Shown here: piece after piece, positions 5,058-17,331 of the stretch
How the letters are laid out: each line of letters starts with the position of its first letter
How positions within the stretch are numbered: the first letter of the stretch is position 1
NCBI GenBank assembly: GCA_016703005.1
Contig: JADJCX010000033.1
Span: forward strand, 164,430 to 228,429
DNA: 64,000 nt
Reading direction: 5' to 3'
Source of the DNA: Flavobacteriales bacterium
Lineage (GTDB): Bacteria > Bacteroidota > Bacteroidia > Flavobacteriales_F > PHOS-HE28
Position numbers and translations under genes: made by a program
The notes under the pieces: generated by a model
What the model saw: only the letters and a program-made list of their open reading frames with translations
The model's database searches: none
What the model was told of the DNA's origin: nothing

Positions 5058-5837
5058 ATGAAAAAGCGCTACGCCCTTCTTCTTCCCGTCCTCTTTGCTG
5101 CATTCGCGTCCACTGCCCAGTACTGTTCGCCCACCTTTCCCAACGGTTGTTTCTCCTGGTCCAACCTTTCCATCAGCTTGGGCACCCTCAACTGGAACAA
5201 CACCGACTGCACCATTTCGGACTACACGGGCCTCAGCACCACCGTGACCGCTGGCGTGCCCACGCCCATGACCGTGGTGAACGGTACATGGACCGGGTGC
5301 GCCGTATGGGTGGACCTCGATAATGATGGCACCTTCCAGGACAGTGAGAACCTGCACTATGAGTATGTGGGTGGTTCGCCCAGCTACACCTATAGTTTCA
5401 ACATCACCGTCCCCGCGAACACGCCGAGCGGCGCGTATCGCATGCGCGTGATCGCGCCGTGGGGTTCCGACGGCTTCCTCACCACCAACACCAACGGTTA
5501 TGGCCCTTGCGGCGCATACCAATACGGCAACTTCAACGACTTCACCCTGAACGTATCGGGCACTACTGCTGTTGCCGAGGCGAGCGCTGGTGCCACGGCC
5601 CCGGTGCTCTTGAGCGCAAACCCCACCAACGGACTTATTGCACTTCAGGCCAGCGCTGCTGCACCGCTCCAGCGCGTGATCGTGCGCAGCATGGATGGCC
5701 GCGAGGTGCAGGACCAGGCTTTCGCTGCGAACATGGACCGCGTGCAACTTGACCTGAGCGCCGTTGCCGAGGGTGCGTACGTGATAGAGTGTATTTCGGG
5801 CGCTGGTTCCAGCAGCCTCCGCGTGGTGAAGGAATAG
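5058..5837 (+). CDS. GEVED-domain secreted protein with T9SS C-terminal sorting domain
   Basis: 259 aa. Signal peptide MKKRYALLLPVLFAAFASTAQ. YCSPTFPNGC...NDFTLNV is the GEVED-type Cys pattern. C-terminal LLSANPTNGLIALQ...EGAYVIECISGAGSSSLRVVKE is CTD-like. Confidence 0.7.
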   Translation: MKKRYALLLPVLFAAFASTAQYCSPTFPNGCFSWSNLSISLGTLNWNNTDCTISDYTGLSTTVTAGVPTPMTVVNGTWTGCAVWVDLDNDGTFQDSENLHYEYVGGSPSYTYSFNITVPANTPSGAYRMRVIAPWGSDGFLTTNTNGYGPCGAYQYGNFNDFTLNVSGTTAVAEASAGATAPVLLSANPTNGLIALQASAAAPLQRVIVRSMDGREVQDQAFAANMDRVQLDLSAVAEGAYVIECISGAGSSSLRVVKE

Positions 5838-5854: not shown

Positions 5855-5899
5855 GTTCAATGGGAACACTGCGCAGAACGCGCGGTGTTCCCATTGAAC
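5855..5899. terminator. Bidirectional hairpin terminator between convergent genes
   Basis: gttcaatgggaacac-N15-gtgttcccattgaac is a perfect 15-bp stem. It sits between the stop codons at 5837 (+) and 5902 (-). There is no strong T-run. Confidence 0.5.
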
Positions 5900-5901
5900 G
5901 G

Positions 5902-6111
5902 CTACAGTTTCACGATCAGCTGCACGCGTGCATTGCTCCCCCCGAGCTGCACTTCCACGTTGCATTCCATGCCCACCACTTTCGTGGGGTCACTACCGGT
6001 TTGCACCTTCACCGGCAGGCCGTCCACCAAGTGCAGGCGATCGCTGGCGGGGGTGCCATTGGCAATGCGGTAGTGAAGCACTTCAACAAGGTCCTTCAGT
6101 TGCTGTTCCAT
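5902..6111 (-). CDS. Small hypothetical protein (69 aa)
   Basis: The ORF ends immediately at the convergent terminator hairpin. No recognisable family. Confidence 0.3.
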   Translation of the reverse strand: MEQQLKDLVEVLHYRIANGTPASDRLHLVDGLPVKVQTGSDPTKVVGMECNVEVQLGGSNARVQLIVKL

Positions 6112-6207: not shown

Positions 6208-6731
6208 TTAGTGTTCAGCGACACGCTTCAAACCGGCCAGACCGTTCTCGAAATCCTTCCCGATCAGCTTGTCCATGTTCATGAACATGCCCATCACCTT
6301 GCCCATGAACATGTTCGGGCCGTCCATGGTCCAGCGCACGTTGGTGGCGCTGCCTTGCGGTGTGAAGTGGAAATGCGTGATGCACTGGTTCTTGAACGGC
6401 CGCACGAAACGCAGGTCGATCTTTACGCCATTGGTGTTGGCTTCCAGGATCTCCATCGTGCCTTCACCGGCCTTACCATTGCCGCTCCAACCGTATTTGG
6501 CGCCTACGCCTTGCGGTGCAGCCATGTATTCGCGTTTCATGTTCGGGTCCAGTTTCTCCCACGGGCTCCAGGGCATCCACTTGTGGAAGTCCGTGATGTG
6601 GGGAGAATGCTTTCCGGTGAAGCGTTGATCATTGTGCTGCGCTCGTAGTGAACGGAGTTCGGCTTCATGGAAGCCGCAATGAGAATGCCGACGATGAAGA
6701 CGGCGAGGCCGAGGAGGATGTATGTGAGCAT
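6208..6731 (-). CDS. Membrane-anchored SRPBCC family protein (polyketide cyclase/dehydrase-like), disrupted by a frameshift
   Basis: N-terminal piece (ORF 6537-6731: MLTYILLGLAVFIVGILIAASMKPNSVHYERSTMINASPESI) and C-terminal piece (ORF 6208-6795 frame: HITDFHKWMPWSPWEKLDP...GLAGLKRVAEH) are in different frames. The junction is at the G4 run at 6600-6603. Confidence 0.6.
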
Positions 6732-6746
6732 GGTGGTAGGTGTGGA

Positions 6747-7136
6747 TCAGACAGGAGTGTACGTGCGCAGTGAAAGCCGCTTGTGGTGCAGCCAATAAGC
6801 AACGAGCAGCACAGCGATGAAGAGGAACATCGGCGCCCAGATGCTTACCGGATCACCAATGGCCCAGAAGGAGATCACGGCCGCCACCAGATCGATGAAC
6901 AGGCCGAAGTAGGCCCACTCCTTTACGCGGACCGGCAGCATAGGAAGCAGTATGGCAATGGCCCCAATGATCTTGGCCACCGAGATGATTTGTATGAAGT
7001 AGAGCGGGTAGCCCATCTTCACGTGTAGATAGTCCACGGCTTGCTCGTTCAGGGTGAGGCCGCCGATGCTGCTGAAGATCATGAAGGCGCTGAAGAGCGC
7101 GGTGATGATCCAGTAGGCGAGGTTGATACGTTTCAT
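6747..7136 (-). CDS. DoxX family membrane protein
   Basis: MKRINLAYWIITALFSAFMIFSSIGGLTLNEQAVDYL...AIGDPVSIWAPMFLFIAVLLVAYWL. Multi-TM DoxX-like profile. Confidence 0.7.
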   Translation of the reverse strand: MKRINLAYWIITALFSAFMIFSSIGGLTLNEQAVDYLHVKMGYPLYFIQIISVAKIIGAIAILLPMLPVRVKEWAYFGLFIDLVAAVISFWAIGDPVSIWAPMFLFIAVLLVAYWLHHKRLSLRTYTPV

Positions 7137-7222
7137 TCGATAGGGTACAAGTGTGAGAGGTTGAAATGGAAAGAGGGTAAGAGGGTGAAAGGGTGCGAGG
7201 GAACTGGGGATGAATGGCTCTG

Positions 7223-7687
7223 TCACTCTTTCACATTTTCATCGCGCAGGATGAGTTCAAGTTTGTCCAGGTTCTCTTCGTTCGCTTGCGCGATAAAGTT
7301 CTTGATCGGCGCCAGTTCTTCCGCCGTATTGAAGCGCATGATCCACACAATGCGCGTGCCACCGGCCTCTTCGGTGAAGGTCACCATGGCCTTGTAGAAG
7401 TGCATCTCCTTCAGGTGGTCGAACTCCAAATAGCTGTGCGGCTCGATACGGTTGAAGACGCAGGTGTTGACATAGTTCGCGCCATCAGGCCCGTGCATGG
7501 TGAACTCCCAGATGCCTTCGGGCTTCAGGTCGAAGCGATGGAAGGAGTTGGTAAAGCCGTTCGGGCCGTACCAACGCGCGAGCAGATCGGGATCGGTCCA
7601 CGCGGCGAAGACATTCTCGCGCGGAGCCTTGAGCAAGCGCGTGGTGCGCACTTCGCGACCCTCCATGTGATCTTCTGATCTTCTCAT
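7223..7687 (-). CDS. SRPBCC domain protein (Aha1/activator of Hsp90 ATPase-like)
   Basis: EVRTTRLLKAPRENVFAAWTDPDLLARWYGPNGFTN...TRIVWIMRF. Start is ambiguous (ATG at 7687 or 7666). Confidence 0.7.
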   Translation of the reverse strand: MRRSEDHMEGREVRTTRLLKAPRENVFAAWTDPDLLARWYGPNGFTNSFHRFDLKPEGIWEFTMHGPDGANYVNTCVFNRIEPHSYLEFDHLKEMHFYKAMVTFTEEAGGTRIVWIMRFNTAEELAPIKNFIAQANEENLDKLELILRDENVKE

Positions 7688-8064
7688 TTTCTGATCTTCA
7701 GATCCTTCTTCACCGGCCACCGCACCTCGATCTCCGCCACCTTCGCTTTCACGATGTCCTTCACCAATGCAGCGGGCAACGGTTTCTCCGGTGTGAACTG
7801 GATGGTGCCTTTGCTCACAGTGAAGTCCTTCAAGCGGTCCTTGAAACCGAGAGGCACTGAACCGTAGAGCGCCACGTGGTTCTTCGCCGCACCCATGTAC
7901 ACCAACGGATGGCCGTTGTACTTGAATGCGGGCAGCCCATAACCGAAGTGCTCCTCAGCGCCCGGTGCGGCAGCGAGGATCTGCTTGCGCAATTTCTCCA
8001 AGGCATTGCGCTGGTCCTTGGGCAAGGCTATGAGGTATTCGCCGGTGTTCGTTGCTGGTGACAT
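7684..8064 (-). CDS. DUF1801 (YdhG-like) domain protein
   Basis: EYLIALPKDQRNALEKLRKQILAAAPGAEEHFGYGLPAFKYNGHPLVYMGAAKNHVALY is the typical DUF1801 pattern. Confidence 0.7.
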   Translation of the reverse strand: MSPATNTGEYLIALPKDQRNALEKLRKQILAAAPGAEEHFGYGLPAFKYNGHPLVYMGAAKNHVALYGSVPLGFKDRLKDFTVSKGTIQFTPEKPLPAALVKDIVKAKVAEIEVRWPVKKDLKIRK

Positions 8065-8125
8065 GTTGTGATCAGGATCGGTGTCAGTGGGGGCTTTGGT
8101 CCCTCAGCTTCGCTTCCTTTGAAGC

Positions 8126-8764
8126 ATGCGTTACAAGATCGCGGGGTGGGCTGGGTTACTGGGTGTGTTGTTCTTCGTTGGTGAAGCGATCGTCGGTGGT
8201 TTGCAGATCGAAAACTACAGCCACGCCCGTCAGTTCATCAGTGAGACATATGCTTCCGGGACGCCATGGTCCGATATGCTACGGTTCAGTGGTGTGCTTC
8301 CTGCGGGTGTGCTGTTCACGGTATTCGCATTCTTGTCGGCCAGCAAGCTGAGTGTGCCACGTCGGGGCATGATCGGTTTCATCGCGTTCGGTGTATTCTA
8401 TGGCTTGGGCACTGTGGCTGCTGCGTTCTTCCCGTGCGACTTCGGTTGCGATCCCGGCCAAGCTGATCCTACGATCTCACACATCCTCCACTTCGCATCC
8501 GGCACGCTCACGTACCTCTTCACGCCGTTCTGCCTGGTGTTGATCGGTGTGGCGGCGGAAAAATGGCCGAACGCTTCAGCTCTTCCCAAGACATTGCTTG
8601 TCTGCGGTGCGATCATGTTCGCCGGTGTCTTGGTGCTGTTCCTCTTTCCGGTGGATGGCCTGCTGGGACTGAACCAACGGATCATCGAAGGCGCGGCGTT
8701 GGTAAGCATCGTTCGGTGCTCGCAGTATCTGCTCTCGCGCAAAGCGTCCATGGTCCCTGTTTAG
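8126..8764 (+). CDS. DUF998-like membrane protein
   Basis: 212-aa multi-TM ORF on the + strand, divergent from the island genes. The family assignment is from memory of DUF998 proteins. Confidence 0.55.
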   Translation: MRYKIAGWAGLLGVLFFVGEAIVGGLQIENYSHARQFISETYASGTPWSDMLRFSGVLPAGVLFTVFAFLSASKLSVPRRGMIGFIAFGVFYGLGTVAAAFFPCDFGCDPGQADPTISHILHFASGTLTYLFTPFCLVLIGVAAEKWPNASALPKTLLVCGAIMFAGVLVLFLFPVDGLLGLNQRIIEGAALVSIVRCSQYLLSRKASMVPV

Positions 8765-8765
8765 T

Positions 8766-9050
8766 TCACTTCTTCCGGAACGAAAGGCCTGCAGCTTTCA
8801 GCGCGCTTCGCAGCTTGGGCAGGGAACCGGGGCCCATGCCGTGCAACGCCAGTACTTCGCGCTCGCTGCGTCCGGCTAACGTCTTCACGGTGGTGATCCC
8901 TTCGCTCTCCAGCGCCCTGCGCGCGGGTGCACTCAGCTTCGCCATCCAGCCGTCCTTGGGCGCGCCCAGGGTCTCACACACTGGACAAGTCGGGCAATCG
9001 CTGCTCTTGACGTAGCTATGACCGTTGGGACAAGTGCGCCGGTTCTTCAT
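8766..9050 (-). CDS. Small zinc-ribbon + helix-hairpin-helix protein (RNA polymerase alpha CTD-like fold)
   Basis: MKNRRTCPNGHSYVKSSDCPTCPVCE (CxxH...CxxC ribbon) followed by LSAPARRALESEGITTVKTLAGRSEREVLALHGMGPGSLPKL (HhH). Confidence 0.45.
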   Translation of the reverse strand: MKNRRTCPNGHSYVKSSDCPTCPVCETLGAPKDGWMAKLSAPARRALESEGITTVKTLAGRSEREVLALHGMGPGSLPKLRSALKAAGLSFRKK

Positions 9051-9081
9051 TATCTGATCATCTCATTTTCCGATCCTCTGA

Positions 9082-9492
9082 TCAACCTTGCGCCTGCTTC
9101 TGATCCATCCAGAATACCTCCCAGATGTGGCCGTCCAGATCGTTGAAGCTGCGGGCGAACATGAAGCCGTGATCCTCGGCTGGACGGCATTCGGTGGCGC
9201 CACCCGCAAGGGCCTTGTTGTACAACACATCCACCGCTTCGCGACTTTCCACGGAAAAGGCAAGCAGCACTTCGGTGCTCTTGGTCGCGTCCCCAACGGT
9301 CTTGCCCTTCGGCAGGAAACGTTGGATGCTGGACGACGTGTGCAGCATGCAGTAGATGGTATTGCTGATCACCAAACAGGCCGCATCGTCATTGGTGAAC
9401 TGCATGTTGAAACTCCAGCCGAGCTTCTTGAAGAAGGTCATGCTGTTCGCAAGGTCATTGACCTGCATGTTGACGAAGATCTGGGTGGGCAT
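9082..9492 (-). CDS. VOC family protein (glyoxalase/bleomycin-resistance/dioxygenase fold)
   Basis: 136 aa. IFVNMQVNDLANSMTFFKKLGW...ECRPAEDHGFMFARSFNDLDGHIWEVFWMD is typical of small VOC proteins. Confidence 0.7.
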   Translation of the reverse strand: MPTQIFVNMQVNDLANSMTFFKKLGWSFNMQFTNDDAACLVISNTIYCMLHTSSSIQRFLPKGKTVGDATKSTEVLLAFSVESREAVDVLYNKALAGGATECRPAEDHGFMFARSFNDLDGHIWEVFWMDQKQAQG

Positions 9493-9495
9493 CGT

Positions 9496-9960
9496 TCAGG
9501 GTTGTGCGGTTTCGGTGAAGAGGATGAGCCTGCCGAGGCAGTCGTTCCAGCCGACGGCGTGTTCCTCGCAGTGTGCCACGGTGGCGAACGTGGTCTGGTT
9601 CAGGGTGAGCAGGGTGGTGGTGCCGCGTTGCTCGAGGGTGATCTCTACAACGGTATCGCACCAGATGTCGCCTTCGCTGTCCTCGCGCAGCCAGGTGAAG
9701 ACCAGTCGCGATGGCGCGTTGATGTGCGTGTACTCGCCCCGCACCCAGTGGTCGCTGCCGTCGGGTGCGCGCATGCAGAAGCGGTACTTGCCGCCCACGC
9801 GAAAGTCCTGTTCGCAATGGGGTAGCGTGAAGTCGTTCGGTCCCCACCAGCGGACGAGGTGCTTAGGGTTGGTCCATGCGTTGAAAACCAGCTCGCGCGG
9901 AGCATTCAGGATTCGTGATAGCACCAGCGTGCGCTCGTCGGTTGCCGTCAGGGAGTTCAT
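9496..9960 (-). CDS. SRPBCC domain protein (Aha1-like)
   Basis: LVLSRILNAPRELVFNAWTNPKHLVRWWGPNDFT...TTTLLTLNQTTFAT. Confidence 0.75.
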   Translation of the reverse strand: MNSLTATDERTLVLSRILNAPRELVFNAWTNPKHLVRWWGPNDFTLPHCEQDFRVGGKYRFCMRAPDGSDHWVRGEYTHINAPSRLVFTWLREDSEGDIWCDTVVEITLEQRGTTTLLTLNQTTFATVAHCEEHAVGWNDCLGRLILFTETAQP

Positions 9961-9963
9961 GGT

Positions 9964-10245
9964 CTACCGATGAAAGGTCAATGTGTTCAGTCCTTTTGCG
10001 CTGCGTGCTTCCATTAAGGCCAAGCCACCAACGAAGAGCACTTCCGCCAATAGATGCGCAACGCCCAGTGCGCTGAGTTCACTTGCTTTGTTGAAGAGCA
10101 AGCCAAGACAGAAGAGGGCATACAGCGCATTCGCGGTGATGAGCGTCCACACGGGATTGGGACGATAGGCTTTGAGCAGCGTGATCGTACCGGAGAATGC
10201 GCCGTAGCACATCCCGACGATGCCCAGCCGAGCGAACCACGCCAC
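9964..10245 (-). CDS. Small multi-TM membrane protein (possibly the 3' part of a frameshifted longer gene reaching 10355)
   Basis: 93-aa ORF with GTG start and hydrophobic helices. The overlapping ORF 10014-10355 in another frame has a TM-like N-terminus, suggesting one gene with an indel near 10250. Confidence 0.35.
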   Translation of the reverse strand: MAWFARLGIVGMCYGAFSGTITLLKAYRPNPVWTLITANALYALFCLGLLFNKASELSALGVAHLLAEVLFVGGLALMEARSAKGLNTLTFHR

Positions 10246-10351
10246 CGAAAGACCCGAAAGCGGCGACCATACCTCCCGACGAAGAACAGGACAAGTCCCG
10301 CCACGATACCTGCGATGGCGTCGGTACGGATGAGAGCAGGCAGCGACCAGG

Positions 10352-11107
10352 TCATGCGCGTTTTGCTTTGGTCTTTGTCCTGACAGCGGCTGCCGTGCGC
10401 TTCGTATCCCGCTTCTCCGCGCGCTTCGCGATCATCGGTCGGTTGATGTCGCTTAACACATCTTTTCCTACCCAGCGTTCGGTCTTGTCGGTGCTGGCGG
10501 CGAGGCGCTCAGCGACTTCCAGGGCGGCTTCGCGACAGACCACGCTTCGCGAACCCAAACTGCGCAAGGCCCAGCTCACGGCCTTCTTCACGAAGTTGCG
10601 CTCGTCGTTCGCGGCCTTCTCGCATAGGGGCAACAATTCGAGGTAGGGCTCATCGGGTCCTTTCTTGTCGTGCAAGGCGCAACCGGCCAACAACGCGAAC
10701 GCTGCCCGCTTTTCGAACTCCGGCTTACGCTTGGCCCACTGCTTCACCTTGCTGAACGCATGCGGGGTCTTGTCGAAGAGCAGGAAGCACGCCGTGTCGC
10801 AATCAGCCCAATTCTGGAAGTCAGCGCACCAGGCATCCATCATGGAGGGCGTCACCAGCCTGGGGTCAGCAAGGTGTGTGGCCAGCGCTTTGGCTTCATG
10901 CCAACCGGTGTCCCAGAGCAACAGCGCCAATTCGTGGTCCTTGCCGATGGTCTTGGCCAGCTTCTGCACGTCCGGCATCGAAGTACCGAATGCCTGATCC
11001 GTGTGGATCGCGAAGCGCGCTGACAATTGTTCACGGTAGCGCTTCGTGCCATGCGACTCCAACAACTTGAGTGCCGCCTTTACATCCGCTTCTCGCTTCC
11101 CGGCCAT
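10352..11107 (-). CDS. DNA alkylation repair enzyme (AlkD-like HEAT-repeat DNA glycosylase family)
   Basis: 251 aa. LKLLESHGTKRYREQLSARFAIHTDQAFGTSMPDVQKLAKTIGKDHELALLLWDTGWHEAKALATHLADP...DAWCADFQNWADCDTAC matches the PF08713 pattern. Lys-rich C-tail. Confidence 0.65.
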   Translation of the reverse strand: MAGKREADVKAALKLLESHGTKRYREQLSARFAIHTDQAFGTSMPDVQKLAKTIGKDHELALLLWDTGWHEAKALATHLADPRLVTPSMMDAWCADFQNWADCDTACFLLFDKTPHAFSKVKQWAKRKPEFEKRAAFALLAGCALHDKKGPDEPYLELLPLCEKAANDERNFVKKAVSWALRSLGSRSVVCREAALEVAERLAASTDKTERWVGKDVLSDINRPMIAKRAEKRDTKRTAAAVRTKTKAKRA

Positions 11108-11136
11108 TCGGTCATCTCATTGTCTGATCAACTGAT

Positions 11137-11604
11137 CTACGCCACGATCCAGTTCAACTCCGTCCGATACTCGCTCGGACTCTTAACCTCATTCGGGTTG
11201 TTCAGGTAGCTCTCCCAGAATTTCCCCGTTTCGCCGTGGCCGTTCTCGCGCACCCATTTCTGCAAGGCTGGCCATGCTTGCGCCAGTCCTTCGTATGGAC
11301 CTTGGTACACACTCCGCACGACTTTCGCCGCAGGCAGCGTGCTATTGATGACACGTCCCTGAGGCTTGATCGCCTTCGCTACTGGGAATCCGATCTCGAA
11401 GTCAAAGGTGTCTGCCGGTCGGCGATGGTGATAGGAGAACATCGGTCCGCCGTACGGCGGATGCATGCCTTGCTCGGCGAGCACCTGGATGATCTCTTGG
11501 ATCGCAGGGTCCATGTACTTCGGCATGTCGCGGCCGGGGATCACGAGCGGGATGGCAGCCGTGATGACTTCTTGAGTGGTGATGACTTCGGGTGGAGTGA
11601 TCAT
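11137..11604 (-). CDS. GyrI-like small-molecule-binding domain protein
   Basis: 155 aa. MPKYMDPAIQEI...PMFSYHHRRPADTFDFEIGFPV...VRSVYQGPYEGL...SYLNNPNEVKSPSEYRTEL is the GyrI/AraC effector-domain pattern. Confidence 0.6.
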   Translation of the reverse strand: MITPPEVITTQEVITAAIPLVIPGRDMPKYMDPAIQEIIQVLAEQGMHPPYGGPMFSYHHRRPADTFDFEIGFPVAKAIKPQGRVINSTLPAAKVVRSVYQGPYEGLAQAWPALQKWVRENGHGETGKFWESYLNNPNEVKSPSEYRTELNWIVA

Positions 11605-11641
11605 GTTGCTTGGGATTGTCGGGGCCGGGATCTTCCGGCCC

Positions 11642-12595
11642 TTACTTCATGTTCTTCACGAGTTCCTTGATGATCCTCTTGAGGTCCTTTTCCTTTTGCT
11701 TGAGGTCTTCTAGGCTGCGGATCACCAGCAACCGTCGGCCATCGGCGTAGGTGCCTTCCAGTATTCCGTTGGGATCCTTCACGTCGGCGCCGCGCAGGAA
11801 GATCGACCGCACACAGTCCTGCTTGAAGAAGTTGAAGCCGACGACGTAGCGCTTGTAGGTCTTCGGGTCGAAGAGCTTCATCGAACCCGTGTAATAGAAG
11901 GTTGGCGCGTTCCAGAAGATGCCTTCCCCGATGCTCTTGTCCGTGCCGAGGATGAGGGAGCGCAATTCCTTCGCTACATCGAGCAGTGGATGCTTCAGCG
12001 CCTTCATGTGCGCATCCACCGTTCCGGGTTCGGAAGTTCCCGTGAAGAGAGCGTTCTCTTTTTTGGCCTTCCCTCTGCCTTGTTTGGCGAGCAACTTATC
12101 AAGCTCCTGGTAGCTGAACTCCAATCCGCCCTCCATGGGTGAAGCGAGTATCTCGTCGCGGGTCTTCTTGGATCCGTAACGCGCGGTGATCGTCATCAGC
12201 GTGATGCCTTTCTTTTCCGTGAGCACCATGGTGCTGAGTGCTTCGCCCGCATACCACGCCGGCTCGAATTTCTCGGTGTTCACGATGCGCTCTGGGCGCT
12301 TCACCTCTTTGTACACACCGCTCATGCCCATGCCCTTGTCGGCCCCGGCGGAATTGCTCCAGACGTAGCGGTACTTCCCGCCCACGCGCGGATCGATCTC
12401 GCAAACGGAGAGGGTCCAACCAGGCGGACCGTGCAACCACTGCTTTACCATTTCCGGCTTGCTCATGGCATCGAAAACCAGCGCGCGTGGAGCGGCGAAG
12501 CTGCGCGTGATCACGAACTCGCGATCGCCCTTGGGAGTAACTACAGCCCTGTTGCTCGTGCCACGTGCAGGCGACGCGGGTTTGGTCTTGTTCAT
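11642..12595 (-). CDS. SRPBCC (Aha1-like) domain fused to C-terminal DUF1801 domain
   Basis: N-terminal REFVITRSFAAPRALVFDAMSKPEMVKQWLHGPPGWT; C-terminal VDAHMKALKHPLLDVAKELRSLILGTDKSIGEGIFWNAPTFYYTG. Start taken at MNKTKP. Confidence 0.65.
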   Translation of the reverse strand: MNKTKPASPARGTSNRAVVTPKGDREFVITRSFAAPRALVFDAMSKPEMVKQWLHGPPGWTLSVCEIDPRVGGKYRYVWSNSAGADKGMGMSGVYKEVKRPERIVNTEKFEPAWYAGEALSTMVLTEKKGITLMTITARYGSKKTRDEILASPMEGGLEFSYQELDKLLAKQGRGKAKKENALFTGTSEPGTVDAHMKALKHPLLDVAKELRSLILGTDKSIGEGIFWNAPTFYYTGSMKLFDPKTYKRYVVGFNFFKQDCVRSIFLRGADVKDPNGILEGTYADGRRLLVIRSLEDLKQKEKDLKRIIKELVKNMK

Positions 12596-12617
12596 GTCAG
12601 TGTAGTATCGGAGTGGA

Positions 12618-13034
12618 TCAGGCTTGAGCTTCCGTGTACGCTTTGAACCGGTCCAGGATCGCTTGCCAGCCGCCGCGTTGCATCTCCACAGGGTTCTCTG
12701 TCTCTGCATCAAAAGCTTCGGTCACCAGTGTACCTCCTTCCCTTTCGTTGAAATGGATTTCGCAGATGCGACCATCGGCCATGGTGTAGGCGATGCGCTT
12801 GTTCAGTTGAACATCGTCATACACTCCGGCGAAATCGAAGCTGAAGCTGCCATCGCGCGCGGCCATGGTGCTGCTGAATTTGCCGCCGGTGCGCAGGTCA
12901 TTGGTCGCCTTTGGGCAGTGCCAATCGTCGCTCGCCGCGTTCCATTGCGTGATGTGCGCAGGTTCTGTCCAGGTCCCCCAGACGTGGGCCACTGGTTTGT
13001 TCACGAGGGCGGAAACGGTGATGCGGGTACTCAT
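12618..13034 (-). CDS. SRPBCC family protein
   Basis: MSTRITVSALVNKPVAHVWGTWTEPAHITQWNAASDDWHCP...GTLVTEAFDAE. Confidence 0.7.
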   Translation of the reverse strand: MSTRITVSALVNKPVAHVWGTWTEPAHITQWNAASDDWHCPKATNDLRTGGKFSSTMAARDGSFSFDFAGVYDDVQLNKRIAYTMADGRICEIHFNEREGGTLVTEAFDAETENPVEMQRGGWQAILDRFKAYTEAQA

Positions 13035-13068
13035 GGTGTTGTGCGTTCGTAGTGTTGGTCTTGACTTG

Positions 13069-13462
13069 TCAATCCTCAAGGGCTTCGATGCCCTGTTCCT
13101 TCAAGCGTTGCAGGTTGTCCTTCATGGCTTGGAGTTGTTCCGGCGCGTGGCCTTTCCAATCCATCACTTCGCCGATCACGCGCAAGGCATCCTTCGTGCG
13201 GTACGATTTCGTTGGATTGCCCGGGAACTTCTTGTCCGTCAGATTAGGATCATCCTCATATGGCCCCGGGGCTTCCACGATGTAGATCCTTCCGCGTCCT
13301 TCACCGGCAGCGAGTTCAGCGCCCCAGGTAGCGGCATCCAGCGTGGCGGAGAAGTACATACTTCGCCTTGTTCCCTGGCCATAATTGGAATTGAACCGGG
13401 TTCGAGAGGTCGCCCTTCTTCAGATCGGCCTTGGTGCCGTGGTAGAACGTGGGTGATTCCAT
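13069..13462 (-). pseudogene. arr: Rifampin ADP-ribosyltransferase Arr, frameshifted
   Basis: C-terminal fragment (ORF 13069-13359) YFSATLDAATWGAELA...GRGRIYIVEAPGPYEDDPNLTDKKFPGNPTKSYRT...RVIGEV.DW.GH aligns with Arr-2/Arr-ms. N-terminus MESPTFYHGTKADLKKGDL (Arr FYHGTKA motif) is in another frame. The shift is at a C/G run near 13396-13400. Confidence 0.55.
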
Positions 13463-13474
13463 GTCGCATGCATT

Positions 13475-13975
13475 CATAGACCGGACGCGAGCAGTTCATC
13501 CAACTGATCAAGGCCCATGGTGAAGCCTTCCTTGAAGCCCATCGCCACGATCTGCTCCAGTTCTTCTGGTGAACCAAAGTGGAGGATGGCGCGCACCAAT
13601 GTGCGACCATCCGTTCTTGCTGAAGTGCGCTTCCCAACTCACCTTGGGCTTCGTGTCGTTCCCTACGCCGTGCTCATCGCAGAACGAATCGCTGCCCGAG
13701 AAGTGCGACTTCGGCCGGACGGTCTCGTAGTCGAAGAAGCACCAGTGCCGGTCGCCTTGCGGGCCTTGCATGTAGTAGAGCCAACGCCCACCTTCACGGA
13801 AGTCGAGTGCCTTGATCACGCACTCATAAGGCTTCGGAGCCCACCACTGGCAAAGGATGTCCGCATTGGTCCACGCGGCCCACACCGGATCCAGCGGGGC
13901 GTTGAAGGATCGCTCCACGGTGATCGACCGGGCGTCCTTTTGAACGATGAAGTTGAAGATCGCTGCTTTGCTCAT
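13475..13975 (-). CDS. SRPBCC domain protein (Aha1-like), C-terminus frameshifted
   Basis: ORF 13508-13975 gives ITVERSFNAPLDPVWAAWTNADILCQWWAP. The canonical C-terminus DGRTLVRAILHFGSPEELEQIVAMGFKEGFTMGLDQLDELLASGL is in another frame after EAHFS, with the shift near 13612-13622. Confidence 0.6.
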
Positions 13976-13987
13976 GGTTCAATGGGT

Positions 13988-14437
13988 TTATGGAGTGCTC
14001 AGGTAGTCGTCCAAGCGTGCGAGCGTTTGCTGGCCGCCTTCGATCGCGCCGATCTCTTTGACGGCGAAGTCCCGTGCTTCCTTGTTGGGGAAGAGGGTGC
14101 GAAGGGTCACGAGTGTTCCGCCTTCGGTTTCCTCGAAGGTGATGACGGCCTCGAATTGTTTGGGGTTCTGCCAGTCGCCGTGATCGTAGGCCAGACGGTC
14201 GATGGGGGACACCTCGGTATAGGTCACGAGATTCTCGAACACGCGGCCCTCTCCGGATGTCATCGTGAATTTCCATTGCCCACCGATGCGGACATCCATG
14301 GAAAGCGTCTTATTCGTAAAGCCGTTGGGCCCGAACCAATGATCCACATGCGCGGGATCCGTCCAAGCCTGCCACACGATCGATCGTGTGGCCTTAACGG
14401 TGCGGCTGATGATGATCTCGCGGTCACTCTTGTTCAT
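13988..14437 (-). CDS. SRPBCC domain protein (Aha1-like)
   Basis: MNKSDREIIISRTVKATRSIVWQAWTDPAHVDHWFGPNGFTN. ATGA overlap with the upstream arsR-family gene. Confidence 0.7.
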   Translation of the reverse strand: MNKSDREIIISRTVKATRSIVWQAWTDPAHVDHWFGPNGFTNKTLSMDVRIGGQWKFTMTSGEGRVFENLVTYTEVSPIDRLAYDHGDWQNPKQFEAVITFEETEGGTLVTLRTLFPNKEARDFAVKEIGAIEGGQQTLARLDDYLSTP

Positions 14438-14811
14438 GGCTTCTTCTTTTTGGCCTTCGCTGTCTTCGCGGAGGTGGCCTTGGCATCGGCCGACTTGGCT
14501 TGCAGTTCCATCAGGTAGGCATCGAGGCGATCGAAGCGCTCCTCCCACATCTGACGATACTGTTCGATCCAGGCGTCGGCTTCGCGCAGCGGTTCGGCCT
14601 TCATCTCGCAGGGGCGCCATTGGGCCTCGCGGCCGCGTGCGATGAGTTGTGCGCGTTCCAGCACCTTCAAGTGTTTGCTGATCGCCGGCAGGCTCATGCT
14701 GAACGGCGCTGCGATCTCGTTCACCGAGGCGGCACCCGTGCTCAAGCGCGCGAGAATGGCGCGTCTCGTAGGGTCGGCGAGGGCGGAGAAGGTGAGCGAG
14801 AGGCGGTCCAT
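14434..14811 (-). CDS. ArsR/SmtB family transcriptional regulator
   Basis: MDRLSLTFSALADPTRRAILARLSTGAASVNEIAAPFSMSLPAISKHLKVLERAQLI is the HTH of ArsR family. It is the first gene of the minus-strand array. Confidence 0.75.
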   Translation of the reverse strand: MDRLSLTFSALADPTRRAILARLSTGAASVNEIAAPFSMSLPAISKHLKVLERAQLIARGREAQWRPCEMKAEPLREADAWIEQYRQMWEERFDRLDAYLMELQAKSADAKATSAKTAKAKKKKP

Positions 14812-14831
14812 TGTTCCTTGAAGGGACAAAC

Positions 14832-14855
14832 GTATTAAACCAAATGGTTAAATAC
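14832..14855. promoter_or_regulatory. Putative ArsR operator (imperfect palindrome) overlapping the promoter of the ArsR-led operon
   Basis: gtattaaacc-aaa-tggttaaatac (11/12 inverted repeat) is ~20 bp upstream of the ArsR start. A Bacteroidota -7-like TAcgTTTG follows on the coding (minus) strand. Confidence 0.4.
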
Positions 14856-14934
14856 AAGAGGTCGCAGAAATTTTCATTCGGGATAGGGGTGATCAGCGGT
14901 CCATCTGTCTTAGGGACACACTTCAAAACCAACT

Positions 14935-15649: not shown

Positions 15650-16726
15650 ATGCGGCGCTTTTCTTCAGCGGTGGTCGGTGTGTGCTTTGCCGCCTTGGTC
15701 ACGGCGCAGTCACCGGCGCTGATCGCGTACTACGCCGGTGATGGTAGCAACCTTGATGAGCACCGTATCGAACAACTCACACACTTGATCTGGTGCTTCG
15801 GTCACGTGCGCAATGATTCGATGGAGATCGCTCCATCGCAGGAACCGATCATCGAACGGATGGTCGGGTTCAAGCTGCGCAACCCCGGGCTGAAAGTGTT
15901 GATCTCCCTTGGCGGGTGGGGAGGATGTCCGACCTGTAGTGAAGTGTTCGGCCGCGAAGAGGGCAGGAGAAAGTTCTCCGCGAGTGTGCTTCATCTGATG
16001 GATCGCTTGAACGTCGACGGCATTGATCTCGATTGGGAGTATCCCGCCGTGCAAGGTCCGCCGGGTCACCGGTTCGCGCCGGAGGACCAGCGGAACTTCA
16101 CGTTGCTGGTGCAGGAGTTGCGTCGGGTGCTCGGGCCGGGGCGCGAGATCAGTTTCGCCGTTGGCGGAACCGATGACTGCATCCTGAAGGGCTTCGAGTG
16201 GGACAGCATTATGCCGTTGATCGATCGCATGCACATCATGAGCTACGACTTGGTGCATGGCTATAGCTCCCGTACAGGGCATCACACGCCGCTGTATTCA
16301 TGTGGTCACCAGGCCTTGTCGGCTGATCATGCCGTACGCCTGCTCGATTCGTTGCAGGTGCCAAGACGGAAGGTCGTTATAGGTGCCGCGTTCTACGCCC
16401 GCCTCTGGAAGGACGTCCCGGCCGTTGACAATGGCCTTTTTCAGCCCGGAGCGTTCAGTCATACCATCCCATGGGGCGCCTCGGACACCACGCTGACCAA
16501 GGCCAAAGGTTGGTCCATGTTCCGGGACAAGGAAGCATGGGCAGCCTACGCGTACAATGCCGAACTGAAGCAGTTCGCAACTTTCGATGATGCCGCAAGC
16601 ATAGCAGCCAAAGCGAACGACGTCCGGCACGAGGGATTGGGTGGCATCATGTTCTGGCAATTGATCGATGACAAGGCCCGGAACGGACTGCTTGAGGTGA
16701 TGTACAAGGCGCTACGCGCACCTTGA
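15650..16726 (+). CDS. Glycoside hydrolase family 18 (chitinase-like)
   Basis: Signal peptide. The [10 protein letters not shown] catalytic motif (DxxDxDxE) is present. Confidence 0.75.
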
Positions 16727-16800
16727 CCGGCATCAACGGAAGTCGGGGTATGAGAACTGCCAGGGCTACTTTCGGCACCTCTCTCGGCTGGACACAAGAC

Positions 16801-17331
16801 ATGCGCATTTCCGTTTTCTGTGGAGCAGGGCTGGGTAATTCACCGGCTATTCAAGAAGCAGCACGCGCGACGGGTCAGGCAATAGCCCAGCTTGGATGGG
16901 GCGTGGTTTACGGGGGCGGCCACGTGGGCCTCATGGGGTTGGTCGCGGATGCGGCTCTCGAAGCAGGAGGGAGGTGATCGGTGTGATCCTGGTTCATGGT
17001 CGAGAAGGAATTGGCGCATTCCCGGTTAACGCAATTGCTCGAGGTGGAGAGCATGCACCAACGGAAGATGCGGATGCACGAGCTGAGCGATGCCGTGATC
17101 GCGCTACCCGGGGGCTTCGGCACCCTGGATGAGCTTTTCGAACTGCTCACATGGCGGCAGATCGGTCTGCATAACAAGCCCATCGCCCTGCTCAATGTCG
17201 ATGGGTTCTTTGATCCGCTGATCGCACAAGCAGATCGTATGGACGCCTTGGGTTTCCTTCATGCCCAGCGGGGGCTTTTGATGTCTGAGCAGCACATCGG
17301 CCCATTGCTCGACCGCTTCGCTCGGTCGTAG
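16801..17331 (+). CDS. LOG family protein (TIGR00730 Rossmann-fold nucleotide hydrolase), locally disrupted
   Basis: [16 protein letters not shown]...[26 protein letters not shown] then two in-frame stops, then VEKELAHS...[57 protein letters not shown] 27-nt garbled segment at 16972-16998 is restored by three 1-nt homopolymer insertions. Confidence 0.6.

Follow-up and report, generated by a model that had tools for sequence, protein, structure and literature searches.

An ArsR-headed gene array and its layout

The analysed stretch is a 64,000 nt piece of the genome of an uncultured Flavobacteriales bacterium (assembly GCA_016703005.1, contig JADJCX010000033.1, positions 164,430 to 228,429; hereafter the window, numbered from its first letter), in which an array of small genes lies behind an ArsR/SmtB-family regulator between positions 14855 and 6208. 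A reading of the sequence alone had proposed that this array is a single inducible xenobiotic- and genotoxin-response regulon of seventeen minus-strand genes. Features were mapped by a six-frame open reading frame (ORF) listing combined with hmmscan against Pfam and NCBIfam. The array indeed comprises 17 genes, 16 of which are on the minus strand, while the remaining one, encoding a DUF998 membrane protein, is on the plus strand:

14827..14857, minus: putative sigma-A promoter, with the -33 TTG at 14857-14855 and the -7 box TACGTTTG at 14834-14827
14832..14855: operator, GTATTTAACC-ATTT-GGTTTAATAC, one copy of the conserved TAWTTAACC-N4-GGTTAAWTA site
14434..14811, minus: ArsR/SmtB-family repressor, 125 amino acids (aa); Pfam HTH_20 (3.3e-13) and HTH_5 (9e-10)
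13988..14437, minus: AHSA1a (SRPBCC); Pfam AHSA1 (3.7e-27); its start overlaps the ArsR stop (ATGA)
13474..13975, minus: AHSA1b (SRPBCC), frameshifted by a 1-nt insertion near 13611; Pfam AHSA1
13069..13477, minus: arr (rifampin ADP-ribosyltransferase), a pseudogene or mis-sequenced; Pfam Arr-ms on both pieces
12618..13034, minus: AHSA1c (SRPBCC); Pfam AHSA1 (2.5e-21)
11642..12595, minus: AHSA1-DUF1801 fusion, 317 aa from the ATG at 12595 (start picked by spacing); Pfam AHSA1 and DUF1801
11137..11604, minus: GyrI-like small-molecule-binding protein, stand-alone; Pfam GyrI-like (2.5e-15)
10352..11107, minus: HEAT-like-repeat (DNA_alkylation) protein, AlkF-like; Pfam DNA_alkylation PF08713 (2.6e-27)
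9964..10355, minus: small membrane protein (TM130), 130 aa when intact, frameshifted; no Pfam family
9496..9960, minus: AHSA1d (SRPBCC); Pfam AHSA1 (1.1e-30)
9082..9492, minus: VOC-fold (glyoxalase / bleomycin-resistance-like) protein; Pfam Glyoxalase and Ble-like_N; PDB 4GYM (7.9e-30)
8766..9050, minus: zinc-ribbon and HhH (RNA-polymerase alpha-CTD-like) protein; NCBIfam PRK07758 (1.8e-37), Pfam RNA_pol_A_CTD weak
8126..8764, plus: DUF998 membrane protein; Pfam DUF998 (7.8e-20)
7684..8064, minus: DUF1801 protein, first of a four-gene tail; Pfam DUF1801 (3.3e-16)
7223..7666, minus: AHSA1e (SRPBCC), start as in the gene call of the near-identical contig L001; Pfam AHSA1 (1e-23)
6747..7136, minus: DoxX_2 membrane protein; Pfam DoxX_2 (1.3e-16)
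6208..6731, minus: membrane-anchored Polyketide_cyc2 (SRPBCC) with an N-terminal transmembrane helix, frameshifted; Pfam Polyketide_cyc2
5855..5899: hairpin (inverted repeat) between orf69 (5902-6111, minus) and a convergent gene at 5058-5837

The domain searches reproduced the DoxX, DUF1801, VOC, GyrI-like, arr and zinc-ribbon/HhH assignments that had been made from the letters, and the two Pfam helix-turn-helix matches bear out an ArsR/SmtB protein at the head. The count of at least seven SRPBCC/Aha1-like proteins, one fused to DUF1801 and one membrane-anchored, was likewise confirmed by hmmscan, with six AHSA1 proteins and one Polyketide_cyc2 protein. These seven, 22-40% identical to each other, are old paralogues rather than recent duplicates, and no more SRPBCC paralogues were found elsewhere in the 64-kb window. 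The DUF1801 domain occurs twice, once fused to AHSA1 and once as a stand-alone protein.

From ArsR to the zinc-ribbon gene (14811 to 8766), 12 genes form a co-directional block with intergenic spacing of -4 to +37 nt. Start and stop codons overlap in an ATGA at the ArsR/AHSA1a and AlkF-like/TM130 junctions, and a third such overlap is possible at AHSA1b/arr, given an arr start at the upstream ATG. A terminator scan detected no minus-strand terminator in any intergenic region of the array, and no internal consensus promoter was found inside the block. The short gaps, the start/stop overlaps and the lack of an internal terminator or consensus promoter suggest that these genes form one 12-gene unit. 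The tight spacing noted earlier holds from ArsR to the zinc-ribbon gene. The DUF998 gene converges with the latter, their stops lying 1 nt apart, and cuts the four-gene tail (8064-6208) off the ArsR-headed block; neither a second operator nor a TAnnTTTG box was found before this tail (8065-8125). Because DUF998 is inverted and neither an operator nor a consensus -7 box precedes the tail, the term super-operon, taken as a single unbroken unit, does not apply to the array in this genome.

The hairpin at 5855-5899, a 20-bp near-perfect inverted repeat (-34.7 kcal/mol, z = -6.7), is the likely end of minus-strand transcription of the array and probably a bidirectional terminator; the gene at 5058-5837, which converges on the array end, is a T9SS-tailed GEVED gene. 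We left orf69 out of the array, because the gene that takes its place in a related species (L087, see below) is not similar to it. Rfam and tRNA scans of the region and the window returned nothing, neither a riboswitch nor a tRNA-linked integration site, and a sigma-70 promoter scan was empty, as expected for Bacteroidota.

A conserved operator embedded in the head promoter

The sequence-only reading had pointed to a palindromic operator in front of ArsR. The palindrome, GTATTTAACCATTTGGTTTAATAC (14855-14832, minus strand), has a 10-N4-10 layout with 10/12 positions pairing per arm and is not significant when taken alone (one site in the window versus 0.42 expected). It is nevertheless far beyond chance because it is conserved at the heads of orthologous operons. 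A scan of one genome per species gave 80 loci with an ArsR 59-76% identical to that of the window, spanning Flavobacteriales, other Bacteroidota, Cyanobacteria, Alpha- and Betaproteobacteria, Acidobacteriota, Chloroflexota, Myxococcota, Actinomycetota, Gemmatimonadota and others. With a site defined by at most two mismatches in 12 core positions, 78 of 85 loci, drawn from more than 10 phyla, had at least one site within 150 nt of the start codon of the ArsR orthologue; the consensus is TAWTTAACC-N4-GGTTAAWTA (118 sites). As many as 117 of the 131 sites fall in the 11.9 kb of upstream DNA, out of 1.31 Mb of locus DNA in total, which corresponds to a ~900-fold enrichment. In two of the seven loci without a site right before ArsR (L007 and L072), the site precedes the first gene of the operon instead, a gene located ahead of ArsR.

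In 45 loci two operator copies directly follow each other in an exact register of 16 bp, and outside Bacteroidota the operators are found downstream of a TTGACA -35 element and ahead of the start codon. Among the loci L005-L084, the operator outside Bacteroidota usually consists of paired 16-bp sites that abut exactly (TTAACCnnnnGGTTAA directly followed by TTAACCnnnnGGTTAA), whereas Flavobacteriales have a single site; this implies a lineage difference in repressor stoichiometry or cooperativity.

In the Flavobacteriales relatives L085, L087, L089, L091 and L094, the block TTGTATTTAACC-N4-GGTTTAATACGTTTG is kept (TATGTTTG in L089). The -7 box TACGTTTG (14834-14827) fits the flavobacterial sigma-A consensus TAnnTTTG, which is located at -12 to -5 (PMC9723704), and this operator-embedded box is one of only four TAnnTTTG matches in the 64 kb. 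The operator fills the entire spacer from the -33 TTG to the -7 box and reaches into both elements, a classical repressor position. From this arrangement, transcription is predicted to start near 14822, giving a leader of ~11 nt, and the promoter at the array head appears to be the only recognisable one in the cluster. The four TAnnTTTG matches compare with 9.7 expected in this genome of 59% G+C; either perfect boxes are rare or selected against, or promoters deviate from the consensus.

A regulator without metal sites

In an alignment of 28 homologues the ArsR start MDRLSL (ATG 14811) is conserved, and the protein contains a single invariant cysteine, C68. The closest structure is PDB 3F6O, an ArsR-family protein of Rhodococcus jostii RHA1 from structural genomics (E = 2.4e-30), whose match spans the whole window ArsR, including the C-terminal helix W..E....WE.R.DRL, and which has a Cys at the equivalent position. 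Together with 7R22 it represents the nearest solved ArsR structures, both of them structural-genomics or drug-discovery entries without a known effector.

An ArsR protein at the head of an operon might suggest conventional control by a metal or metalloid, and the regulator does match the NCBIfam subfamily model 'metalloregulator ArsR/SmtB' (NF033788; 80 bits, cut-off 55). However, the 28-homologue alignment contains neither an ELCVCD-type or cysteine-bearing alpha3 motif nor the alpha5 His/Asp/Glu ligands, and there are no transporter, reductase or metallothionein genes among the hmmscan assignments of the array. Loss of the metal motifs was described for the ArsR of the ArsR-COG3832 gene pair by Makarova et al. 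(PMC2701414) and is likewise recorded in a preprint on Mab3862, and the DNA binding of the related M. tuberculosis protein Rv2034 is unaffected by Zn and four other metals (PMC3338718). We rejected metal sensing on the grounds of the absent ligand residues and consider it extremely improbable; the window ArsR is best placed, from its residues, in a non-metal subfamily. That no effector of ArsR could be named from the sequence alone is understandable, because the protein lacks metal sites.

An expanded member of a known gene pair

The core of the array is an already described module and not a new kind of system, a fact that the sequence-only reading had missed. Makarova, Wolf and Koonin predicted ArsR-COG3832 (COG0640-COG3832) in 2009 as a conserved but patchily distributed pair, enriched on chromosomes and with lineage-specific expansions, and judged a role in antibiotic resistance, by analogy with CalC, likelier than a true toxin-antitoxin role (PMC2701414). 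The same ArsR-AHSA1 linkage was recorded in a Frankia genomics paper (PMC4531530), and few papers in the searched literature join ArsR with SRPBCC or AHSA1. As in that module, the window ArsR lacks the metal motifs and stands directly upstream of an AHSA1 gene on the same strand; unlike the strict pair, it heads six AHSA1 and ten other genes, and the extras include arr, GyrI-like, VOC, HEAT-like-repeat, DoxX and DUF1801 proteins. Arrays with several AHSA1 genes are common in other phyla.

A precedent is Rv2034, which autorepresses the overlapping Rv2034-Rv2035(AHSA1)-Rv2036 operon of M. tuberculosis from an 8-N4-8 palindrome, CCGTAAGT-N4-ACTTACGG, that spans -30 to +3, and whose only Cys is required for repression (PMC3338718). 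Rv2034 is also reported to act globally, on phoP, groEL2 and dosR (PMC3338718). The window locus shares with it a promoter-overlapping palindrome with a 4-nt spacer, a single Cys, overlapping genes and an SRPBCC protein encoded by the second gene. The two differ in size, with three genes versus 12 to 17 here, and in the operator, which is TTAACC-N4-GGTTAA here; no description of the latter was found in the searched literature, the coverage of which was incomplete. Both this precedent and the location of the operator lead us to infer that an ArsR dimer represses its own operon, and autorepression at the operator is a well-supported prediction.

Across the phyla covered, the same ArsR subfamily fronts AHSA1 arrays: an AHSA1 gene lies directly downstream of ArsR and on the same strand in ~74 of the 80 loci, with up to seven AHSA1 genes per array, and in most loci the ArsR and AHSA1 genes overlap or are less than 30 nt apart. 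Such tight coupling could also be read as a toxin-antitoxin-like unit in which AHSA1 is the toxin, ArsR the antitoxin and autorepressor, and the other genes are passengers. The pair was detected by criteria for toxin-antitoxin prediction, as a small two-gene unit of patchy distribution with lineage-specific expansions (PMC2701414), and Rv2035-Rv2034 is listed among the putative M. tuberculosis toxin-antitoxin pairs (PMC3968373). One ArsR before two to seven AHSA1 genes in many phyla, and before six here, nevertheless misfits a 1:1 neutralisation, and we rejected the strict form of this explanation on stoichiometry. Moreover, Makarova et al. favoured antibiotic resistance for this chromosomally enriched pair (PMC2701414), and PasT, another START-fold 'toxin', was later shown not to be one (PMC13525633). 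A toxin-antitoxin function is thus very unlikely.

Conserved order and variable content in relatives

The sequence-only reading had argued for one regulon rather than unrelated genes, to be checked by synteny. In the related species represented by L087 (ArsR 87% identical), 16 of the 17 window genes are present in the same order on one strand with 59-89% amino-acid identity, and the co-directional block there comprises 18 genes. This conservation of order on one strand shows that the cluster is not a chance neighbourhood. The arrays of L091-L093 (ArsR 96%) resemble that of the window, and gene order is largely kept in L091, L098 and L009. The DUF998 gene is absent from L087 and L091, and in L085 it is co-oriented within the array. 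The single-regulon claim is therefore supported by synteny and by the one operator-embedded promoter at the head; the tail, which DUF998 separates and which has no operator of its own, may or may not be coupled to ArsR in this genome.

In other phyla, the array companions include PhnB-like and glyoxalase VOC proteins, RibD_C, GFA, DUF899, DUF1428, YceI, PNPOx and GST; the chaining of genes downstream of ArsR was crude (no chain in 29-46 of the 80 loci), so that this list is a sampling of companion families and not a count.

Three kinds of fusion link members of the array to each other, namely AHSA1-DUF1801 in the window, HhH-DUF1801 in L087 and L091, and AHSA1b-Arr. The HhH-DUF1801 protein is encoded by a single ORF (L087 15841-16554, L091 16117-16806), the halves of which correspond to the zinc-ribbon/HhH and DUF1801 genes of the window (7684-9050). 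The inverted DUF998 gene sits at the position of the fusion's linker, and the split in the window reflects either gene fission by insertion or, in the relatives, fusion by deletion.

The AHSA1b-Arr fusion, with a length of 293 aa, occurs in L090 (11227-12108), L091 (10843-11724), L092 and L093, and 293-aa AHSA1-Arr proteins make up at least 22 clusters at 90% identity. Triple AHSA1-SRPBCC-Arr proteins of 444-450 aa exist as well (both kinds taken together: P0121-P0142, P0208, P0221, P0229). The AHSA1-Arr and triple fusions are apparently all of Flavobacteriales-related lineage, and the few with a named source are from Flavobacteriales metagenome-assembled genomes. On its architecture, AHSA1-Arr can be taken as a Rosetta-stone link from the SRPBCC domain to rifampin ADP-ribosyltransferase. 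In the searched literature, of incomplete coverage, we found neither this architecture nor a rifamycin ADP-ribosyltransferase with an SRPBCC domain. Many further Arr homologues of 230-266 aa (P0152, P0156, P0161-P0166 and others) have an N-terminal extension of ~100 residues without Pfam annotation; they include proteins from the named cyanobacteria Leptolyngbya, Phormidium and Desertifilum.

Three things are new here: the operator shared across phyla, the AHSA1-Arr fusions, and how extensive and fluid the Flavobacteriales arrays are. The array may be described, on comparative grounds, as a conserved ArsR-AHSA1 head followed by a fluid tail.

The fluidity raises the possibility that the site is merely permissive, with unrelated accessory genes collecting behind an ArsR-AHSA1 promoter and decaying in this strain. 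Loci with 87-96% identical ArsR proteins carry very different gene sets (L085, L089, L091, L094), and the flanking genes differ among most of the close relatives, although L094 shares the GH18 gene upstream of the window ArsR. The frameshifts described below, which affect 4/17 array genes compared with one split gene that turned up in a non-exhaustive check of the other 55 kb, and one of which recurs in two independent assemblies, fit this explanation too. It is, however, at odds with the recurrence of the same families in arrays of distant phyla, with the fusion of AHSA1 to both Arr and DUF1801 and with the 16 genes that keep their order in L087 at 59-89% identity, and some of the frameshifts may be assembly errors. 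We regard a mere collecting site as improbable.

Frameshifts in four array genes

Four genes of the array, AHSA1b, arr, the transmembrane protein gene at 9964-10355 and the membrane SRPBCC gene, are frameshifted in the window and intact in relatives. AHSA1b has one additional nucleotide near 13611 compared with the 85%-identical L098 and is intact in L087 and L098. In arr, four deletions at 13406, 13396, 13375 and 13356 remove 5 nt in total relative to the intact gene of L098. The transmembrane protein gene lacks one G at 10280 relative to both L001 and L002; the intact 130-aa gene is found in L001, L002 and L087. In the membrane SRPBCC gene, a run of C5 in L001 is reduced to C4 at 6600 (L002 does not reach this site), and the intact 174-aa gene is present in L001, L087 and L091.

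The L001 and L002 contigs are 98.4-98.8% identical to the window, and L001-L004 together 98.4-99.4%; such ~99%-identical DNA allowed a comparison at 10280 and 6600 only. Searches for identical proteins gave nothing but short contigs, and a scan of metagenome DNA gave relatives at 85% identity or less. The deletion at 10280 is common to the independent contigs L003 and L004 and absent in L001 and L002. It is therefore a real polymorphism, at least for this lesion, and both alleles appear to circulate in nature. The lesions in arr, AHSA1b and at 6600 are due either to decay or to assembly error, and with 4/17 genes affected, arr among them, part of the array is either decaying or mis-sequenced.

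Elsewhere in the window, a screen of overlapping same-strand ORF pairs (non-exhaustive) resolved four of five into separate genes, and only the LOG-family (Lysine_decarbox / SLOG) gene at 16723-17331 (plus strand) was split, over two or three frames near 16975-16996.

Functions of individual array proteins

The one component with an equivalog-level function is Arr. The repaired 131-aa protein scores 200 bits against the NCBIfam equivalog NF033144 (NAD+-rifampin ADP-ribosyltransferase; cut-off 130), whereas the window gene itself is broken, with no intact ORF, and its counterparts in some relatives are fused to AHSA1.

For the GyrI-like protein, the nearest chains in the PDB are 9RTM (5.6e-22) and CTR107 (3E0H/2KCU/5KAX, 8.4e-22 to 9.7e-22). 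CTR107 (5KAX, 3E0H) is, like the array protein, a stand-alone GyrI-like domain of equal length (E ~1e-21), and it binds several drug-like cations.

The DNA_alkylation protein had been labelled an AlkD-like glycosylase. The DNA_alkylation fold was recovered, but in the PDB search only the AlkF chains 3ZBO and 1T06 matched (2e-5 with the single sequence; 3ZBO at 1.5e-15 with a three-sequence profile), and neither AlkD nor AlkC was found at E ≤ 1. AlkF/AlkG of Bacillus cereus (PDB 3ZBO) is thus the nearest solved relative; it belongs to the fold family of AlkD, and its identity to the array protein is low. The array protein has an invariant NWAxCD motif, which may resemble the Trp/Asp pair of AlkD. 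Since only AlkF chains were matched, the glycosylase label is valid only at the superfamily level. AlkF and AlkG have no base-excision activity and bind branched DNA (PMC4433238).

Some of these proteins would equally suit an endogenous task, in which the array handles hydrophobic metabolites such as lipids and quinones, or redox and thiol stress, instead of foreign compounds. Bacterial START/SRPBCC proteins of known function are mostly lipid or quinone carriers (PMC13525633), Rv2034 has been tied to lipid metabolism, the hypoxic response (dosR) and H2O2 sensitivity (PMC3338718), DoxX, DUF998 and the anchored SRPBCC are membrane proteins, and ArsR has its single invariant Cys. Such a task is harder to reconcile with arr, a dedicated antibiotic-modifying enzyme, with the stable AHSA1-Arr fusions and with the GyrI-like and bleomycin-resistance-like folds, and the variable content and non-syntenic location are more typical of accessory defence than of core physiology. 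We therefore consider an endogenous role unlikely, though less so than a collecting site.

A candidate xenobiotic-defence array

Taken together, the locus is, with a slight balance of probability in favour, an expanded Flavobacteriales member of the ArsR-AHSA1 stress-response module that is autorepressed and serves in defence. We are rather confident of the regulatory part, while the defence role is tentative. ArsR, presumably as a dimer, would bind TATTTAACC-N4-GGTTTAATA in the spacer from the -33 TTG to the -7 box, repressing its own transcription together with that of the genes behind, with the stretch from ArsR to the zinc-ribbon/HhH gene transcribed as a single unit. The four-gene tail would ancestrally have belonged to the ArsR-headed unit, as in L087 and L091, and, now split off by DUF998, may be expressed through read-through or an unrecognised promoter. 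De-repression is expected to need a non-metal signal, most likely a hydrophobic or electrophilic xenobiotic, that could be sensed directly, for instance through the invariant Cys68, or via the AHSA1 partner with which ArsR is translationally coupled. Most of the products have small folds that bind hydrophobic ligands (SRPBCC, GyrI-like, VOC); with Arr in addition, they would bind, sequester or modify such compounds. Xenobiotic defence is a plausible but unproven role, and the genotoxin-response island a hypothesis.

Several points weigh against this explanation. The gene content of the close relatives L085 (ArsR 91%), L089/L090 (~84%) and L094 (94%) is very different from that of the window, and variable content also fits a permissive site that gathers unrelated accessory genes. 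That four genes are frameshifted points to weak selection on this copy, and the HEAT-like-repeat protein is nearest to AlkF, which is without glycosylase activity (PMC4433238). With DUF998 inverted and a tail without an operator, the co-regulation of all 17 genes is no more than a candidate in this genome. The operator of Rv2034 differs, and the relation to Rv2034 is distant, as gauged via 7R22 from M. abscessus (1e-17 versus profile), while a 2026 review of START proteins, in which ArsR is not mentioned, gives the function of Rv2035, and of every AHSA1 protein in ArsR operons, as unknown (PMC13525633). Finally, the case for this locus and its close relatives is built on sequence and comparison.

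A broader version would make ArsR-AHSA1 a pan-bacterial sensor-effector system for hydrophobic antibiotics and xenobiotics, with a near-universal operator and with AHSA1 paralogues as ligand-capturing effectors, perhaps also as co-sensors that relieve ArsR. Flavobacteriales would then be a hub in which resistance enzymes are recruited and fused, and AHSA1b might bind compounds of the rifamycin type, either passing them on to Arr or conferring protection from them. We offer this as a speculation that is more probably wrong than right by a wide measure.

In soil and water bacteria, ArsR-AHSA1 operons rank with the most common regulator-effector pairs that await characterisation; many genomes carry several copies, and the group includes Rv2034, an antigen and regulator of M. 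tuberculosis. Because Flavobacteriales, Cyanobacteria, Acidobacteriota, Chloroflexota and Proteobacteria have this operator in common, one design of reporter or electrophoretic mobility shift assay could serve to screen for inducers in any tractable host. The arrays repeatedly recruit detoxification-type folds, and the stable AHSA1-Arr fusions, the most interesting lead, point to rifamycin-like compounds as the first candidate ligand class. If the defence role is true, the arrays would represent a widespread and overlooked layer of intrinsic antibiotic or xenobiotic tolerance in environmental bacteria; otherwise this is simply a large, partly degraded example of a known module.

A repeated octamer at gene starts

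The AlkF-like, zinc-ribbon/HhH and AHSA1e genes each have, directly 5' of the start codon, a tandem of the octamer GATCAGAN in three to four units, e.g. GATCAGAAAATGAGAAGATCAGA. The copies are located at 7674-7704, 9045-9083 and 11107-11137 (minus strand), and a further one is intergenic and outside the island at ~55245 (plus strand). The tandem is also present in L001-L004 and L098, with none expected by chance, and two of the copies hold a mini-ORF, ATG-AGA-TGA. Possible explanations are a scar left at a junction or by recombination, a site for a regulator, or a signal for translation.

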